DNA of 64,000 nucleotides from Gammaproteobacteria bacterium (GCA_965277625.1 OZ255827.1:1935123-1999122); one strand, 5' to 3'; positions 2,893 through 58,815 are shown, counted from the first letter of the stretch. A program made the numbers and translations. Notes: generated by a model from the letters alone, not told the origin.

Positions 2893-3426
2893 TTACCGAG
2901 CACTTTTATCAAACTTGACTCTATCCCATTGAAAAGCAGGACCTGGGTCAGTTTTGCGCCCTGCTGCAATGTCGCTGTGACCCACAATGGTGGTCAATGG
3001 CAATTGTTGACTCAGTGCGTCGAGCAGTCTGTTCAAACTCAAATACTGCCAGTCTGTGTAGGACGTGGTATCTTCGCCTTCCAATTCTATGCCGATGGAA
3101 TAATTGTTACAATTTTCACGACCATTGTATTCAGATTCACCTGCATGCCATGCTCGACCAGATAGCGGCACAAATTGAATAAGTTCCCCGCCTCGGCGGA
3201 TTAAAAAGTGCGTAGAAACCATAATATTATCAAGGTTTTTAAGCAGTGGATCGTTTGAAGTTACTGCCTTGCCGCTCAGCAGATTAATAATGGCAGAACC
3301 ACCAAATTTGCCTTGAGGTAAGCTGATGCCATGAACGACGACCATGGTTATGGCTGTGGCAGCTGGTCGATTGTTAAAATGGCTTGAGACTTGTATGTCG
3401 GCCCAGTCTAACCATTGTTGTGCCAT
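2893..3426 (-). CDS. ampD: 1,6-anhydro-N-acetylmuramyl-L-alanine amidase AmpD (amidase_2 family)
   Basis: 177 aa. Contains 'VVHGISLP', 'AWHAGES.YNGRENCNNYSIGIELEG' and 'GHSDIAAGRKTDPGP', which are typical AmpD / PGRP zinc amidase motifs. Confidence 0.85.
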   Translation of the reverse strand: MAQQWLDWADIQVSSHFNNRPAATAITMVVVHGISLPQGKFGGSAIINLLSGKAVTSNDPLLKNLDNIMVSTHFLIRRGGELIQFVPLSGRAWHAGESEYNGRENCNNYSIGIELEGEDTTSYTDWQYLSLNRLLDALSQQLPLTTIVGHSDIAAGRKTDPGPAFQWDRVKFDKSAR

Positions 3427-4622
3427 TAAAGTGCGCCTTCAAACACAATCTTCCAACCGTCGGCTTGTTTGTGCCAATATTGTCTGAACAATTGCCTTCC
3501 TTGAATGGTTTGACGGTAGAAATTAATGACGGCAAGAAGCTCATCACTATAAGAAACAATGGCATTCAGATCAATGCCCTCTTTAAAATAGCCTGCTTCA
3601 ATGCGTTTTTTTTGCCATTGTAGCCATTGTTGATAATCCAATTTTTCATTAGAAAACTCTTGTGAATAATAAGCAAACATGGCATCTGAATCCCCAGTTG
3701 TTAAAGTCTGCTTCCAAGCATCCCATGCATGACTGATTTCGCCATTTGTGGTCACTTTAAATTGATGAGAATCTGTTTTATCAGGGGTCCATTGGACCTT
3801 GTGGCTAACGATGATGGGGACTCTGTTATCGGTCATCTGAATCAGCCGCCGAAGCTCATTTATTTGGCTGTTTGGTAAGACCAAGCAACCATCACTGTCC
3901 AACGGCGGTCGAGCAAAGACGCTCGAGTCGGTACCATGCAGCCAAATACCATGTCCCGTGCGATTCATTTTAGTGTCCCAAAAATTCGGATAGTTCAGTG
4001 GAAATGCGCCACTGCCGTAACGGTCTGGCAGTTCTTCCGATTCAATAAATCCTGACAAGAAATAGATCCCTTCAGGGGTTTTTTCATCGCCTTCCACTTG
4101 TTTTCCAAAGCCTTTTTTGCCAATAGAGAGGTAGTACTGCTTAACGATGTTTAAACCCTGAGGGGTGTTCTTGTAAAGAATCATTTTGTGCTTCAGGGTG
4201 TCAGCGACCAGCACATAGGGAATTTCTGGAGAGAGGTACAAAACTTCTTGCGGATACACCGCTTTAGTGTCATCCCAAAGCTTTTGACGCACAATCAATT
4301 CAGCAATGAGACCATCAAATCGACCGATGGGTGGCAGTTGTTCATTGGCGAGCTTTGCGTTGACATAGGCGTTTAGCCATTGAGCCAATTCAAAGTTAGA
4401 TTGTTGATGCAACACTGGCGCCAAATTTTCGCGTGCGCCAACCAAATCATTTGCTAATAGCGCATTGACAGAACGTTTTAAATTTTCTTCAACTTGTGCC
4501 TGAACACTGACGCTCATCAAGGAGATGATGAGTAGCAAACAAAGCGAATGGATGCGGCTTCGATAAGACCCCGATGACATCTTAAACATTAACCCAATAC
4601 TAATTCGCTGTAAATCAACCAT
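3426..4622 (-). CDS. Periplasmic L,D-transpeptidase family protein (YkuD catalytic domain)
   Basis: Signal-peptide-like N-terminus. The central 'GHGIWLHGT...DSDGCLVL' matches the YkuD H-G-[ST]...G-C catalytic signature. A C-terminal ~90-aa domain is paralogous to the C-terminus of the next ORF. Confidence 0.65.
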   Translation of the reverse strand: MVDLQRISIGLMFKMSSGSYRSRIHSLCLLLIISLMSVSVQAQVEENLKRSVNALLANDLVGARENLAPVLHQQSNFELAQWLNAYVNAKLANEQLPPIGRFDGLIAELIVRQKLWDDTKAVYPQEVLYLSPEIPYVLVADTLKHKMILYKNTPQGLNIVKQYYLSIGKKGFGKQVEGDEKTPEGIYFLSGFIESEELPDRYGSGAFPLNYPNFWDTKMNRTGHGIWLHGTDSSVFARPPLDSDGCLVLPNSQINELRRLIQMTDNRVPIIVSHKVQWTPDKTDSHQFKVTTNGEISHAWDAWKQTLTTGDSDAMFAYYSQEFSNEKLDYQQWLQWQKKRIEAGYFKEGIDLNAIVSYSDELLAVINFYRQTIQGRQLFRQYWHKQADGWKIVFEGAL

Positions 4623-5452
4623 TCACCAGACTGCCATTTGAACAGCAAGCGCTTTTTCACTGTATCATTGATTGTATGAGACTGATATTTTTGTTCAAAA
4701 TCCACAGTGGCATGTTCCAGATCATCCTCAATTTTTATGGCAATGTCAGCTAATTTCAAAGTTAAAACTCTGCCAGGAAATACTTTTTTCTTGCGGTCAT
4801 TTTGCCAGGTTTTAAAGTTGAGATGTTGTTTGGGTGATACACCTGTTAAATAACTGGAAAAGTAGTCTTCAATAACCCCTGCTTGCCAACGGTCTCGCCA
4901 AGCCAATAAAGCTTCGTAAACTTGAATATTTAATTGTTTTCTGATGGCATCGATGTTATCAGAACGAGGGGTTTTGGCGACTTGATTGGGCGTTGAAGGT
5001 GTTTGCGATGCCTTAGATGCGGCCATAACGCCGTTATCAGTGGTTTGAGTTGAAGGCGCAAGCGCAAAAGTTTGTCCATCGTCTTTGTTGGCTATGAAGT
5101 CAGGAGGGGTCGGGGCGACTAAGTTCATAATCGTGGCGAGAGATTTTGCCGATTCAAAACTGTAGGCCTTGGTTAAGTTTTCAAAAGGTATGGCACATTC
5201 AGTCTGACTATGCAGATATTGCCGCCACAAATTTATGCCTGATTGAGTCTCACCTGCAAGAAAAGTTGCCATGGCCAAATTATTTAAGGCCATGGTTTTT
5301 AGAGCGGTTGATTCTATGGTTAAAAACTTTTGCTTGGCTTGCTCAAAGGCTTTATTTTCTAAGGCTTCTAAGCCGAGTGCAAAATTTTCACGATCATCCG
5401 CCACCGCAGTGCCTGACAGCATGATGATCACCAAAATCAATTTCTTTAACAT
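4589..5452 (-). CDS. Periplasmic hypothetical protein; C-terminal domain paralogous to that of the adjacent L,D-transpeptidase
   Basis: 287 aa with an N-terminal signal peptide (MLKKLILVIIMLSGTAVA). The C-terminal ~90 aa ('...LLFKWQSGEWLIYSE') aligns with the transpeptidase C-terminus ('...YWHKQADGWKIVFE'). No other recognisable motif. Confidence 0.5.
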   Translation of the reverse strand: MLKKLILVIIMLSGTAVADDRENFALGLEALENKAFEQAKQKFLTIESTALKTMALNNLAMATFLAGETQSGINLWRQYLHSQTECAIPFENLTKAYSFESAKSLATIMNLVAPTPPDFIANKDDGQTFALAPSTQTTDNGVMAASKASQTPSTPNQVAKTPRSDNIDAIRKQLNIQVYEALLAWRDRWQAGVIEDYFSSYLTGVSPKQHLNFKTWQNDRKKKVFPGRVLTLKLADIAIKIEDDLEHATVDFEQKYQSHTINDTVKKRLLFKWQSGEWLIYSELVLG

Positions 5453-5454
5453 CT

Positions 5455-6285
5455 TTATTCCTTATGTCGTTGTTCTATAAGCCAATGCATTAAATCCGCC
5501 CATATTTGATCGTACTCCGCCTTGCTTGGCATTCTAGTCGCACTTGGTAACTCTAAAGTGATCACGGGCACTCGCAATTGCTTCCAACCATAATTGCCTA
5601 ATGAACCTGGATAGGTCCCCAATAATTTTAAATGCAGTCCACCAAATTTTTTAGGCACTTCTAAGGCACCACCGTCAAAATCTAAAATGCCAAACGGCGC
5701 GTGCAGGCTGATAATAATATCGGGTTCAAACGCTTCTATAATTTTAACTATAGTCTTTGTCTCTGGCTCACTGACTTGAAAAGGCCCCGGATAACGCCGT
5801 GGGTCTTCATCTGTTTTTTTGCGCCAATAAGCGAGGGCAACATCCGCACTGGTGGTCGGAAAATTGCGATTCAAATCAACCCCATTGGCATTATATCGGG
5901 TCGGTTTTTTCTTGAGTAATCCATCGAGGTTTAATGCGGGTAAAAAGAGCCAATGAAATCTATACGATTGAGCCTCATTGAGTTTGGTCATCCATTTAAT
6001 AGACACAGAAAAAGCGCTCAGTTCATCACCATGGATGCCACCAAGATACAATATTTTGGGCTTCCTTGAATTGTCGCCCTCGTCCATAAAAGTTTTTCTC
6101 AACAAAGGCAACCCCTTAACAGTTTTACCAGCTGGGGCGTCAAATTTTAAATCCATACATTCCGTATAAGAAATGCTGAATAAGCGTTGCGCTAATTTTT
6201 GACAGGCAATGGCATTGTCATCTGACCAAGCGGACCAAGATATGATCAAGGAAGCCACGAATATAAATGCTCTAATGACAGCCAT
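5455..6285 (-). CDS. Secreted M14-family zinc carboxypeptidase (MpaA-like murein peptide amidase/carboxypeptidase)
   Basis: 276 aa. Signal peptide; 'LGGIHGDELS' (HxxE zinc ligands); 'DLNRNFP' M14 signature; 'SLHAPFG' second His ligand region. Confidence 0.7.
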   Translation of the reverse strand: MAVIRAFIFVASLIISWSAWSDDNAIACQKLAQRLFSISYTECMDLKFDAPAGKTVKGLPLLRKTFMDEGDNSRKPKILYLGGIHGDELSAFSVSIKWMTKLNEAQSYRFHWLFLPALNLDGLLKKKPTRYNANGVDLNRNFPTTSADVALAYWRKKTDEDPRRYPGPFQVSEPETKTIVKIIEAFEPDIIISLHAPFGILDFDGGALEVPKKFGGLHLKLLGTYPGSLGNYGWKQLRVPVITLELPSATRMPSKAEYDQIWADLMHWLIEQRHKE

Positions 6286-6360
6286 GTGTGTGAATGGATT
6301 AGATTAAATAAAGTGCAACACGGTTGCTTGTGGAAATGTCATGAATGGATAGAGAGTATT

Positions 6361-54750: not shown

Positions 54751-57700
54751 TTATTCCGATTCCATCTGAATGTCTATACCGAGTGCTTTGATCTCTTTTA
54801 GGAGAACACCAAGCGATTCAGGTATGCCAGAATGCATATTGTGATTGCCGTCAACAATATTCTTATAAATGTGGGTACGCCCTTGTAAATCGTCAGACTT
54901 GACCGTCAACATTTCTTGTAAAGTGTAAGCAGCGCCATACGCCTCTAATGCCCAAACTTCCATTTCACCAAATCTTTGGCCACCCGATTGCGCTTTACCG
55001 CCAAGAGGTTGTTGGGTGACTAAGCTGTACGGCCCTGTTGAGCGCGCGTGCATCTTGTCGTCAACCAAGTGATTGAGTTTGAGTACATACATATAGCCTA
55101 CGGTCACTTTACGATCAAAGGCTAAGCCGGTTTGACCATCATACAAAACCACTTGACCACTGGTGGGCACATTGGCTTTGGTCAGCAAGGCTTTTATTTC
55201 TGATTCCGCCGCACCATCAAAAACCGGTGTCGCAACGGGTAAGCCTTCTCGCAAATTCTGCGCCAATTCCATGACTTCGTCATCCGACATGGCGGCGACT
55301 TCTGCTGACTCAGCATCCTCTGAATAAATGTCTTTCAGATAGGTGCGCAATGTCTGAGCATTTTTATTGTCGCGTAGCATGTCATTGATTTGATTGCCAA
55401 TACCAGAAGCGGCCATTCCCAAATGGGTTTCTAAAATCTGACCCACGTTCATCCGCGAAGGAACACCTAAGGGATTCAGGACGATGTCCACGGGGGTGCC
55501 GTCAGAATCGTAAGGCATATCTTCAATGGGGCAAATGCGTGACACCACCCCTTTGTTGCCGTGACGACCAGCCATCTTGTCACCAGGTTGAATTTGACGC
55601 TTAACCGCAACCAAAACCTTGACTATTTTCAACGTTCCAGGTGAAAGTTCATCGCCTCGGGTGATTTTGGCGCGTTTAATCTTGTAACGTTCTTCCAACT
55701 CCATTTTTAAAGCGACCAATTGGCGTTGTGAACCCTCTAAGGAACGATTGATCTTATCCTCTTTGGTCTTCACTTTTAACAAGGCTTCATCAGACAAATC
55801 TGCTAAAACACTGGCCGTTAATTTTTTGCCTTTTTTATCGACCTTATTTAATAGCATTTCGCGTGAACGTACAATAATGTTACGTTGAACGATGGCAAAT
55901 TGATCGTCTAAATCTTTTTGGACTTTGGCCAATTCATTGCTTTCTATTTCCAAAGCACGTTGGTCTTTTTCAACCCCGTCGCGGGTAAAGATTTGTACAT
56001 CGATGACCGTGCCTTCCATACCCGATGGTACGCGTAAAGAGGTGTCTTTGAAATCAGAAGCTTTTTCACCAAAGATGGCGCGTAGCAGTTTCTCCTCAGG
56101 CGATAACTGAACTTCACCTTTTGGTGTAACACGCCCAACCAAAATATCACCGGCCTTTACTTCAGAACCAATCGTAACAATGCCAGACTCATCTAAGTTG
56201 GCAAATTGTGCATCGCCCACATTGGGAATATCCGCTGAAATTTCTTCATTACCTTGTTTGGTGCTTCGCGCTTGACAAGTTAATTCTTCAATATGTATGG
56301 AGGTGTAAGTGTCTTCTCGAACCACTTTTTCCGAAACCAAAATCGAGTCTTCAAAGTTATAGCCATTCCATGGCATAAAAGCGACGCGCATATTTTGACC
56401 CAAAGCCAGTTCGCCCAAATCGGTTGAAGAGCCATCCGCGATGACATCTTTTGCATTCAGCCTGTCTCCAGGTCGCACAATGGGGCGCTGGTTGACGCAG
56501 GTGTTTTGGTTAGAGCGTAAATATTTTTGTAAGTTATAAATATCTACCCCAACATCACCTTCGGTCAATTTTTCGACATCAGCTCGAACCACTACTCTGG
56601 AAGCGTCAACGCTTTCTACAATACCGCCTCTGCTTGCAACCACCACATTGCCCGAGTCAACGGCGACGCAACGTTCCATGCCTGTGCCAACCAAAGGCTT
56701 TCTGGCTCTAATGGTTGGGACGGCTTGACGTTGCATGTTTGAGCCCATTAAGGCACGGTTCGCATCGTCGTTTTCTAAGAAGGGGATGAGTGATGCAGCC
56801 ACTGAAACCAATTGCTTAGGCGAAACTTCAGCCAAGTCAAAACGGTCAGGGATACAAACCGTCGTCTCATTTTGATGACGACAGGGCAGTAAATCACCCA
56901 ATATTTTTCCAGATTTGTTGATTTCCACATTGGCTTGAGCAATATAATACTGCGCCTCGTCAATGGCAGAAACAAAGATAATATCTTCAGTGATGATGCC
57001 TTTTTTAACTTTAAAGAAAGGCGTTTCTAAAAATCCATAGTCATTGACTCGAGCATAGATTGCCAATGAATTCATAAGCCCAATGTTTGGACCCTCTGGC
57101 GTTTCAACGGGGCAAATACGACCATAGTGGGTAGGGTGTACATCGCGCACTTCAAAACCAGCACGATCACGGGTTAAGCCACCAGGGCCTAAAGCCGAAA
57201 TGCGTCGTTTATGGGTGATTTCTGCCAAGGGATTGACTTGATCCATAAATTGAGACAATTGCGATGAACCAAAAAATTCTTTTAAGGCGCCTGTAATGGG
57301 TTTTGGATTGACCAAGTCTTGTGGGTGCCAATCTTCAGATTCAGCCAAGCTCAATCTTTCTCTGACCACTCTATCAATGCGAGCCAAACCAGTTCTACAA
57401 GCATTTTCAGCCAATTCCCCGACGGCTTTAATGCGTCGGTTGGCTAAGGTGTCAATGTCATCAACTTGACTGCGGCCATTTTTGATATTGATCAATTCAC
57501 GAATCACATCCAAGATGTCTTCTTTCTCAAGCACGCCAGAGCCTTCGTCGGAACTTCTGTGTAATCTTCTATTGAGCTTCATTCGCCCAACGACGGTCAG
57601 ATCATAACGTTGTTCATCAAAAAACAAACTGTCGAACAAACGGTTTGAAGCATCTTCAGTGGGGGGTTCGCCAGGGCGAATCATGCGATAGATCTCTATT

Positions 57701-58815
57701 CGAGCTTCCAATGGCGTCAGCGTTGAATCAATTCTTAAAGTTTCGGACAAATAAGACCCATGCTCTAATTCATCCATGTAGAGGATGTCTAATTTACCAC
57801 TGCCTTTGTCTTTGAGCATGTCAACAATATCTTCGGTAATGACATCGTTGGCCTTAATCAAAACATTATTGTTGCTTTTTTCGACTACGTCATGCGCCAC
57901 CACTTTGCCAACGGCATATTGATAAGGGACATTCAAGCGTTTGACATTCGCTTCGGTCAATTTTTTGACGTGTCTTTTGTTGACGACTTGATCCGCTTCA
58001 ACGATGACTTTGTTGTCAATCTTAATGTCAAATACGGGTTTTAAACCCAACCACTCATTAGGTTCAAAAACAATTTGTAGGCTTCTTTTGGTAAAACGCA
58101 ATGTGTTTATTTTGAAAAAAGCTCTCAGAATGTCTTCATTGTCCATACCCATTGCTCTGAGCAGTACGGTCAGAGGGAATTTTCTATGGCGGTCAATGCG
58201 CGCATACAAAAAATCATTATGATCAAACTCAAAGTCTAACCAAGAACCTCTGTAGGGTATCACACGGGTTTGAAATAGAATTTTTTGTGAAGAGTGACTC
58301 TTGCCCTTATCGTGGGTGAATATGACACCGGGTGAGCGATGCAACTGAGAGACAACAACACGCTCTGTGCCGTTGACCACGAATGTACCATTGATAGTCA
58401 TCAATGGCACTTCACCCATGAACACTTCTTGTTCACGAATGTCTTTAACGATTTTGTTTTTTTCGGATGAGCGTTCTTTGTCGTAGAGCTTCAGTCTCAA
58501 GGTCACATAAATGGCCGATGCAAATGTCATACCACGTTGGCGACATTCATCTTCTGTATATTCAGGATCCTCTAAGCGATAGCTCAAGAACTCTAAATCT
58601 GCCGTACCCGCAACACCTTTAATAGGAAATATGGATTGGAAAGCGGCTTCTAAACCGTTCAATAAACGATCAGCAGGTAATACTTCGTTCTGTAAGAATT
58701 TTTCAAACGACATTTTCTGAAGCTGCAACAAATAGGGAATTTCCATATTTGTTGGAAGTTTGCCGTATGTTTTTCTTATGCGTTTTTTTTCAGTAAAAGA
58801 AAAAGACATTACCAC
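54751..58815 (-). CDS. rpoB: DNA-directed RNA polymerase subunit beta
   Basis: 1354 aa. Canonical RpoB throughout, including the rifampicin-cluster region '[34 protein letters not shown]'. Confidence 0.98.

Follow-up and report, generated by a model that had tools for sequence, protein, structure and literature searches.

This study concerns four genes on the minus strand, positions 2893-6285, of a 64,000-nucleotide stretch of DNA from a Gammaproteobacteria bacterium (GCA_965277625.1 OZ255827.1:1935123-1999122), which as a whole is called the window here. In the order of transcription, four consecutive open reading frames (ORFs) encode a secreted M14 carboxypeptidase, a secreted protein with a TPR-like and an NTF2-like domain (mid), an enzyme with a YkuD and an NTF2-like domain, and the amidase AmpD. 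The conserved unit among related loci is the mid-enzyme pair; the M14 gene is a facultative third member, and the AmpD linkage is confined to this clade. Judged from its sequence and predicted fold, the enzyme is most likely an L,D-carboxypeptidase rather than a cross-linker, and the pocket of its NTF2-like domain has decayed in this lineage, while that of mid is intact. We consider it probable, with real room for doubt, that the encoded proteins trim peptidoglycan stem peptides in the periplasm, from tetra- to tri- to dipeptides, guided by the non-catalytic partner. What is new in comparison with the known trimming systems of Csd6, Pgp2 and Bd1075 is this conserved non-catalytic TPR-NTF2 partner, together with the decayed pocket of the enzyme in this lineage.

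The enzyme has the following features, its signal peptide, like the others reported here, having been judged by eye and by conservation in homologues:
3426..4589, minus strand (the ORF extends to 4622): YkuD enzyme of the Csd6/Pgp2/Bd1075 type, 387 residues, predicted L,D-carboxypeptidase
4497..4589, minus strand: signal peptide, ending in LLLIISLMSVSVQA and cleaved before QVEE, if the start is at 4589; the orthologue at L082, a more distant relative within the clade, also has one
3804..4220, minus strand: YkuD catalytic domain (Pfam YkuD, 1.3e-13)
4086-4097, minus strand: motif VEGD (E166)
4014-4022, minus strand: Y191
3933-3956, minus strand: motif GHGIWLHG (H213, W216, H218, G219)
3885-3896, minus strand: motif SDGC (C235)
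3429..3764, minus strand: NTF2-like domain whose pocket is degenerate (PF24125, 28.0 bits, cut-off 27; hhalign register)

The closest solved relatives of this enzyme are Bd1075 (7O21, 1.8e-28), Csd6 (4XZZ, 5e-17) and Pgp2 (6XJ6, 5e-13). Fold comparison with Foldseek also ranks these three nearest, and the predicted two-domain model superposes on their structures over about 253 residues. All three are YkuD plus NTF2 enzymes that have been established by experiment as L,D-carboxypeptidases, trim tetrapeptides to tripeptides and set curved or helical cell shape. These characterized carboxypeptidases are described as having a deep active-site pocket with a single entry, transpeptidases as having a groove with two entries. 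Our alignments place E110, Y133, H155, W158, H160, G161 and C176 of Csd6 opposite E166, Y191, H213, W216, H218, G219 and C235 of the window enzyme; mutagenesis of Csd6 has shown that six of these residues (E110, Y133, H155, W158, H160 and C176) are needed for carboxypeptidase activity, G161 not having been mutated. E166, Y191, H213, W216, H218 and C235 are invariant or nearly so in the enzyme family, the first four in an alignment of 25 of its sequences, the triad motif H218-G219-x15-C235 fits the family pattern H(S/G/D)x14-19C, and the residues of Csd6 that bind meso-diaminopimelic acid (mDAP) and D-Ala are all kept. It is because carboxypeptidases are nearest both by sequence and by fold, and because the Csd6 residues are kept, that we read the enzyme as an L,D-carboxypeptidase.

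The earlier note on this DNA had taken the YkuD protein for an L,D-transpeptidase that re-crosslinks stems through 3-3 links or attaches proteins, a claim that finds no support in these rankings. As a rival explanation, a genuine L,D-transpeptidase forming 3-3 or 1-3 links, or attaching proteins to mDAP, with M14 and AmpD tuning its substrates, would agree with the intact His/Cys pair of the YkuD domain, with the name 'L,D-transpeptidase family protein' that family members bear in the sources, and with the fact that some YkuD enzymes combine activities. However, the nearest solved relatives are all carboxypeptidases and the mDAP- and D-Ala-binding residues of Csd6 are retained. Canonical L,D-transpeptidases (LdtMt2, YcbB, YkuD/LdtBs) are absent from the sequence matches of the enzyme to solved structures at E<=1, where the only other YkuD-type matches are DpaA (8ikr, E 0.043), a hydrolase, and 9tyw (E 0.37), and no canonical transpeptidase appears among its top 50 Foldseek matches. 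The LD-1,3-transpeptidase LDT_Go (8QZG) is likewise not matched, and its paper mentions no NTF2 domain. Closeness to the cross-linking enzymes LdtMt2, YcbB, Ldtfm and LDT_Go and to their accessory domains was thus not found; on sequence and fold ranking together we reject a canonical 3-3 L,D-transpeptidase, and we regard any true transpeptidase here as very unlikely. Public records give members of the enzyme family the name 'L,D-transpeptidase (Cds6) family protein' or, in those of the Joint Genome Institute (JGI), 'YafK'. These labels probably misstate its activity and should probably read carboxypeptidase.

The 'YafK' label belongs to another rival, in which the YkuD protein would be a DpaA/YafK-like amidase that releases mDAP-bound proteins, such as Lpp-type lipoproteins or outer-membrane proteins, the partner bridging the wall and the outer membrane. 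By structure, DpaA (8ikr) does rank directly behind the three carboxypeptidases (Foldseek 3.6e-9), there is a weak match to the NCBIfam family LdtF_DpaA_YafK, and the same NTF2 domain is found elsewhere fused to BamE and to TolC-like outer-membrane proteins. By sequence, however, the DpaA match is marginal (E 0.043 versus 1.8e-28 to Bd1075), the score against the DpaA/YafK equivalog NF040599 is 19.7 bits versus a cut-off of 365, the matched regions of DpaA include no NTF2 domain, and the M14 linkage suits stem trimming better. Assignment to that equivalog was rejected, and the amidase reading is retained only as a rival that we think quite unlikely.

The second member of the pair, mid, has these features:
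4589..5452, minus strand: mid, secreted, non-catalytic TPR plus NTF2-like protein, 287 residues, proposed peptidoglycan-binding partner (PF24125, 1.2e-11)
5399..5452, minus strand: signal peptide MLKKLILVIIMLSGTAVA, cleaved before DD; also in the L082 orthologue
5129..5395, minus strand: TPR-like helical domain, residues ~20-108 (the family profile matches consensus TPR proteins; predicted local distance difference test score, pLDDT, ~87-94)
4964..5128, minus strand: linker, residues ~109-163, with a Thr/Ser/Pro/Gln-rich part, 135-162, predicted to be disordered (pLDDT <50 at 135-162)
4592..4963, minus strand: NTF2-like domain, residues ~164-287, with an intact pocket (profile matches to the PDB; Foldseek; pocket columns)

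The AlphaFold2 model of mid (mean pLDDT 81) contains helices at 20-108, disorder at 135-162 and an NTF2 fold at 164-285. A word-index homologue search with mid returned only two near-identical proteins; an exhaustive HMMER search returned 1880 cluster representatives at E<=1e-3, among which full-length relatives of about 280-350 residues share the plan of signal peptide, TPR, linker and NTF2 domain, the linker varying in length and composition across the family. When the profile of the mid NTF2 domain was compared with the whole PDB at E<=0.01, only Bd1075, Csd6 and Pgp2 were matched; Foldseek with the mid model places Bd1075 at the top and also finds Pgp2 and Csd6, amid a background of generic NTF2 folds. 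We propose from these sequence features that mid is a non-catalytic peptidoglycan-binding partner of the carboxypeptidase. Our literature search found no paper on a TPR-NTF2 partner.

The NTF2-like domain is what mid and the enzyme have in common. The earlier note had described a shared C-terminal domain of about 90 residues as clearly alignable; the domain is real, the ease of aligning it was overstated. Full-length BLASTP of mid against the enzyme yields only fragments at E 0.03-0.05, which literally exceeds the value of 0.01 above which that note would have given up the similarity. A Smith-Waterman alignment of the domains alone, in the same register as the one quoted in the note, scores 51 against 30.1 +/- 5.4 for shuffled sequences, 22 of 5000 of which reach 51 (p ~0.004). 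Both proteins match PF24125 ('Cds6_C', NTF2-like) above the Pfam cut-off of 27, mid with 45.3 bits and the enzyme with 28.0 bits, and hhalign of the two family profiles (27 mid relatives versus 25 enzyme relatives) gives 99.7% and E 1.1e-25 over 109 columns. The homology of the shared domain is therefore real, the profile comparison being decisive and the pairwise signal weak. The note had further guessed at an NTF2- or SnoaL-like fold, a TPR-like N-terminus of mid and a duplicated targeting or peptidoglycan-binding module; the first two are borne out by PF24125, the match of the mid model to Bd1075, the family profile and the AlphaFold model, and the third is supported in that the same domain binds peptidoglycan or targets the enzyme in Pgp2 and Bd1075. 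The N-terminal domains of the two proteins show a weak and generic likeness (hhalign 84%, 38 columns, one TPR-like hairpin).

PF24125 also occurs fused to BamE (P0124, P0127, P0142) and to a TolC-like outer-membrane efflux protein, OEP (P0134), and in three to five tandem copies behind TPRs, for example in P0126, P0128 and P0135 (TPR plus 4-5 copies). These fusions and tandem arrays suggest that it is a general cell-envelope or wall-binding module whose use extends well beyond carboxypeptidases. Our search for papers on 'Cds6' returned only unrelated uses of the name (Chlamydia plasmid CDS6 and others) and no cell-wall paper, and 'PF24125' was found in no paper. The Pfam name 'Cds6' is probably, as we infer, a transposition of Csd6.

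One genome per species was scanned with the enzyme alignment. This gave at least 584 matching stretches, of which the best 80 were examined; these loci come from other species, encode enzymes 30-38% identical to the window enzyme, and had their neighbours found by local profile searches. They include Methylotenera, Gallionella, Sideroxydans, Rhodocyclaceae, Thiotrichaceae, Oceanospirillaceae and other Beta- and Gammaproteobacteria. A mid-type gene adjoins the enzyme gene in 77 of them, and the arrangements are:
Mid-type gene immediately upstream, on the strand of the enzyme gene and often overlapping it: 73 of 80 loci
Mid-type gene directly downstream, opposite strand: 4 of 80 loci
M14 homologue directly downstream, convergent: 13 of 80 loci
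AmpD gene adjacent: 0 of 80 loci

It follows from these counts that the conserved unit is the pair; the four-gene order as the conserved unit finds no support. Within this clade, two relatives retain the complete order fba-M14-mid-enzyme-AmpD-secG, the sister genome L001 and the much more distant L082, where identity to the window is 79% for fba, 38% for the enzyme and 28.5% for mid. The M14 gene is thus found in two arrangements, upstream and co-directional (window and L082) or downstream and convergent (the 13 loci). In Oceanospirillaceae the partner is encoded downstream on the opposite strand by longer ORFs (~470-510 residues), and Neptuniibacter caesariensis has an extra PF24125-type ORF of about 498 residues (L071:8201-9694) between the enzyme gene and the inverted partner, with the pocket W W Y Y T R F K E. 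In 52 of the 80 loci, for example at L017:4268-6169, the pair has as a neighbour the gene of cysteinyl-tRNA synthetase, cysS, transcribed divergently, a housekeeping context with no other wall genes. When neighbouring ORFs were clustered over the 80 loci, spurious ORFs of genomes rich in guanine and cytosine (GC) dominated and only cysS was clearly recurrent.

The NTF2 domain's pocket is important in Pgp2 and Bd1075. Changes of Y233, K257 or K307 in Pgp2 lead to straight cells and changes of F242 or E324 to intermediate shapes; tripeptide levels fell in the K257, K307 and E324 variants that were examined, and binding to sacculi was only weak in the K307 variant. Bd1075 requires Y274 for its targeting to the convex side, and the authors of that work point out that no known mechanism targets a protein to one side-wall. 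We compared nine pocket columns, Pgp2 W221, W225, Y233, Y237, F242 and K257, Bd1075 Y274, and Pgp2 K307 and E324, mapping the positions through the alignment of the mid NTF2 profile to its PDB matches. In this order the signatures read:
Bd1075, Csd6 and Pgp2: W W Y Y F K Y K E
Enzyme family (81 loci): 47 match W W Y Y F K Y K E exactly, and most of the rest differ from it conservatively
Partner family: 69 of 79 read W W Y Y F R Y K E, and the K257 column is Arg in every member
Window enzyme (3429..3764, minus strand): W L M Y F Q - F E
Window mid (4592..4963, minus strand): W W Y Y. R Y K E

The window enzyme has lost five of the nine positions, among them the equivalents of Y233, K257, Y274 (a gap) and K307; at the positions of Pgp2 W225, Y233, K257, K307 and E324 it reads L, M, Q, F and E, so that its pocket is not an intact one. 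The window mid keeps W185, W189, Y197, Y201, R220, Y256, K267 and E283. Throughout the partner family the equivalents of Pgp2 Y233, K307 and E324 and of Bd1075 Y274 are invariant or nearly so, K257 is replaced by an invariant Arg, and the F242 column is usually aromatic, being Val in the window mid. Degenerate enzyme pockets occur in the window clade and at L026, L059, L060 and L064, five loci from several lineages, at each of which the partner pocket is intact; the partner pocket is degenerate nowhere among the loci where it is fully readable. At the three loci that yielded no partner gene, of which two lie on truncated contigs, the enzyme pocket is intact, as it is in the three characterized enzymes. 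Although the numbers are small, this pattern fits a partner that would supply wall recognition: where the enzyme's own pocket has decayed and that of the partner is intact, recognition would rest on the partner.

We would go one step further only tentatively, and suggest as a possibility that mid is a dedicated 'reader' subunit in Beta- and Gammaproteobacteria, whose NTF2 pocket would recognize a feature of the wall and whose TPR domain would recruit or activate the enzyme, recognition having been handed over fully where the enzyme pocket decayed. If so, nature has separated targeting and catalysis, functions that are fused in Bd1075, Pgp2 and Csd6, and the reader system might account for curvature, or for maturation of the wall at particular places, in such genera as Gallionella, Propionivibrio, Hylemonella and Methylotenera. 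That mid is functionally unrelated to the enzyme, its adjacency and the shared domain being historical accidents, we hold to be extremely unlikely: the neighbours are housekeeping genes such as cysS, but the adjacency extends over two classes, persists through the rearrangement in Oceanospirillaceae and is often so tight that the reading frames overlap, the domain common to both proteins belongs to one specific NTF2 subfamily, and the pocket decay is complementary.

The M14 carboxypeptidase is the third exported protein of the cluster, and its features are:
5455..6285, minus strand: secreted MpaA-like M14 zinc carboxypeptidase, 276 residues, predicted gamma-D-Glu-mDAP (D,L-) carboxypeptidase (Pfam Peptidase_M14, 1e-17)
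6223..6285, minus strand: signal peptide, residues 1-21, MAVIRAFIFVASLIISWSAWS, cleaved before DD (...SAWS, then DD), with a hydrophobic core and small residues at -3/-1
5545..6033, minus strand: active-site motifs, from alignment to MpaA and family conservation
6022-6033, minus strand: HGDE (zinc ligands H85, E88)
5860-5871, minus strand: NRNF
5695-5709, minus strand: SLHAP (zinc ligand H195)
5545-5559, minus strand: TLELP (catalytic E245)

H85, E88, N139-R140, H195 and E245 are invariant in 15 homologues. After the signal peptide comes an N-terminal extension with conserved Cys28...Cys43, and both the signal peptide and the C...C motif are kept across most M14 homologues (the 13 gammaproteobacterial loci and L082). 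The best solved relatives are MpaA structures (5hxd and 4axv, 4e-13). The score against the NCBIfam MpaA equivalog NF007897 is 76.9 bits, the cut-off being 157, and with the signal peptide this led us to reject an MpaA orthologue; a Csd4/Pgp1 orthologue was rejected on the Csd4 match (4wcm, E 0.62) and the single domain of 276 residues. The earlier note was right that the protein carries a signal peptide, unlike cytoplasmic MpaA, and both this and the zinc ligands, whose absence it said would count against it, are present; the protein is a secreted relative of MpaA. The signal peptide and the N-terminal extension indicate that it is probably periplasmic, and stems still attached to the wall may be its substrate. 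The tripeptide made by Csd6 or Pgp2 is the substrate of Csd4 and Pgp1, secreted M14 enzymes which cleave its gamma-D-Glu-mDAP bond.

The last gene of the cluster gives a simpler picture:
2893..3426, minus strand: AmpD, cytoplasmic 1,6-anhydro-N-acetylmuramyl-L-alanine amidase, 177 residues (NCBIfam NF008758, 217 bits, cut-off 143; Pfam Amidase_2, 1.4e-28)

The NF008758 alignment begins at residue 2, and AmpD, unlike M14, mid and the enzyme, has no signal peptide. Since it passes as a true AmpD equivalog and shows no export signal, the protein is, by its sequence, an ordinary cytoplasmic recycling amidase, and its inclusion in a periplasmic pathway by the earlier note is not borne out.

Taken together, we propose that the enzyme would use Cys235 and His218 to remove the terminal D-Ala (D-Ala4) from tetrapeptide stems and leave tripeptides, and that M14, where present, would cut the gamma-D-Glu-mDAP bond and remove mDAP, converting tripeptides to dipeptides, a two-step order that would parallel Pgp2 then Pgp1 and Csd6 then Csd4. 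The NTF2 pocket of mid would bind the wall, and its TPR domain, on a flexible tether, would hold, position or activate the enzyme. AmpD would handle imported anhydro-muropeptides in the cytoplasm, being co-transcribed in this clade only. The outcome may be a smaller supply of cross-link donors, with consequences for shape or for maturation of the wall, or else processing for recycling. What the sequences show directly are the domain identities, the catalytic and pocket residues, the export signals and the gene order with its conservation; the activities, the contact of mid with the enzyme and the outcome for the cell are inferred.

Several points weigh against this proposal. The enzyme is only 20-26% identical to the characterized carboxypeptidases, and YkuD enzymes may be multifunctional, as LdtJ of A. 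baumannii both cross-links and trims. The signal peptides were called by eye and from their conservation in homologues. M14 is missing from 67 of the 80 loci, and it is MpaA-like rather than a Csd4/Pgp1 orthologue, MpaA acting on free tripeptide. In the sister genome the M14 gene (L001:7168-7998) carries two in-frame stop codons, GAA to TAA at 'GGAL*VP' and TTA to TGA within the catalytic 'TLE*P', the rest being 94% identical; it is probably a recent pseudogene, so that the step from tri- to dipeptide seems dispensable there. Finally, the adjacency and coupling of AmpD point to recycling rather than to a role in shape in this clade. This last point leads to a rival with the same chemistry, in which the proteins would serve mainly wall turnover and recycling, a periplasmic stand-in for cytoplasmic LdcA and MpaA that feeds AmpD in a small genome of 2.1 Mb, and not morphogenesis or local editing. 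Such a role would explain why AmpD is translationally coupled to the enzyme gene, why a relative with an enzyme of only 38% identity retains the gene order from fba to secG, and why M14 is closest to the recycling enzyme MpaA. We nevertheless think it rather unlikely, for AmpD neighbours the pair in none of the 80 loci of other lineages, an NTF2 wall-binding partner and a sacculus-binding domain suggest the intact wall and not soluble fragments as the substrate, and M14 has become a pseudogene in the sister genome.

The layout of the genes agrees with the earlier description of a co-oriented, tightly spaced peptidoglycan-editing cluster, and that general description is supported. The stop codon of M14 and the start of mid are 2 nucleotides apart, and the AmpD and enzyme genes overlap by 1 nucleotide, as had been noted, base 3426 being common to both in a TAATG stop/start. 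A second TAATG occurs at 4589, at the stop of mid. The repetition of this arrangement makes ATG 4589 the most likely start of the enzyme gene, which would then probably encode 387 residues with an N-terminal signal peptide and overlap mid by 1 nucleotide. For relatives, gene callers took the longest enzyme ORF, of 398-400 residues with a 34-nucleotide overlap with mid. Given the TAATG overlap and a normal signal peptide from ATG 4589, the annotated start is probably 11 codons too early. The ratio of nonsynonymous to synonymous substitution rates (dN/dS) against the sister genome, from which the window differs by a dS of ~0.17, is 0.10-0.27 across all four genes (0.27 for mid), indicating purifying selection.

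The genes pgk, pyk and fba precede the cluster on its own strand, and downstream lie secG and a tRNA-Leu gene. The base composition and GC content of the cluster are about those of its flanks, and a horizontal island is therefore ruled out. An anti-phage defence function was dropped after PADLOC gave no match for the three exported proteins. Promoter and terminator scans of the region gave nothing informative apart from one weak site after fba:
6315..6327, minus strand: weak terminator-like hairpin between fba and the M14 gene (consensus scan only: a 5-bp stem, then a T-rich tail)

This hairpin may be the upstream limit of the transcription unit; in the consensus scan, terminator-like sites are no commoner in the region than in shuffled sequence. 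At 359-1813 on the minus strand the window encodes a membrane protein of 484 residues whose match to the L-lactate permease family (55.6 bits) is confined to the C-terminal part of that family, and the sister genome has type I restriction-modification genes at this position instead, so the region downstream of secG and tRNA-Leu differs between close relatives. RpoB (window 54751-58815) has an identity of only about 63-64% to its closest counterparts in named Gammaproteobacteria (Thiomicrospira, Thiomicrorhabdus, Sedimenticola) and of 75-78% to that of metagenomic relatives; the host is an uncultured, deep-branching gammaproteobacterium with a small genome.

In Helicobacter, Campylobacter and Bdellovibrio, the enzymes that make the cell helical or curved are L,D-carboxypeptidases carrying an NTF2 domain. 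The window leads to a related system across Beta- and Gammaproteobacteria, in which a second, non-catalytic protein has the same wall-binding pocket, in some lineages as the sole intact copy. This would be a natural separation of 'reading' from 'cutting', open to testing in hosts that can be cultured, for example Methylotenera mobilis, Aromatoleum, Azoarcus and Neptuniibacter.

In comparison with known systems, AmpD of the window is nothing unusual as a protein, and only its operon position beside the trimming genes is lineage-specific. The window M14 resembles Csd4 and Pgp1 in its signal peptide, its zinc and catalytic residues and its genetic linkage to an L,D-carboxypeptidase; however, these enzymes are far larger (a crystallized chain of 439 residues and 464 residues, respectively), the M14 domain forming only their N-terminal part, whereas the window protein has one domain. 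With MpaA, the cytoplasmic murein tripeptide amidase (E. coli 5HXD, Vibrio 4AXV), it shares the zinc and catalytic motifs and a similar domain size, but MpaA has neither the signal peptide nor the Cys...Cys extension of about 35 residues. Bd1075 of Bdellovibrio bacteriovorus (7O21), the curvature L,D-carboxypeptidase, is 26% identical to the window enzyme and lacks its extra N-terminal helical domain of about 80 residues; its pocket residue Tyr274 is deleted in the window enzyme, which has also lost further pocket residues, and the separate TPR-NTF2 partner gene that stands beside the window enzyme has not been reported for Bd1075. Csd6 of Helicobacter pylori (4XZZ) and Pgp2 of Campylobacter jejuni (6XJ6) have the same two-domain core as the window enzyme. 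Csd6 dimerizes through an N-terminal domain of its own, and the Csd6 and Pgp2 papers that we found describe no TPR-NTF2 partner. The pocket signature of Csd6 and Pgp2 is common to most members of the enzyme family, but it is lost in the window enzyme and kept, with Arg in place of K257, in its partner.

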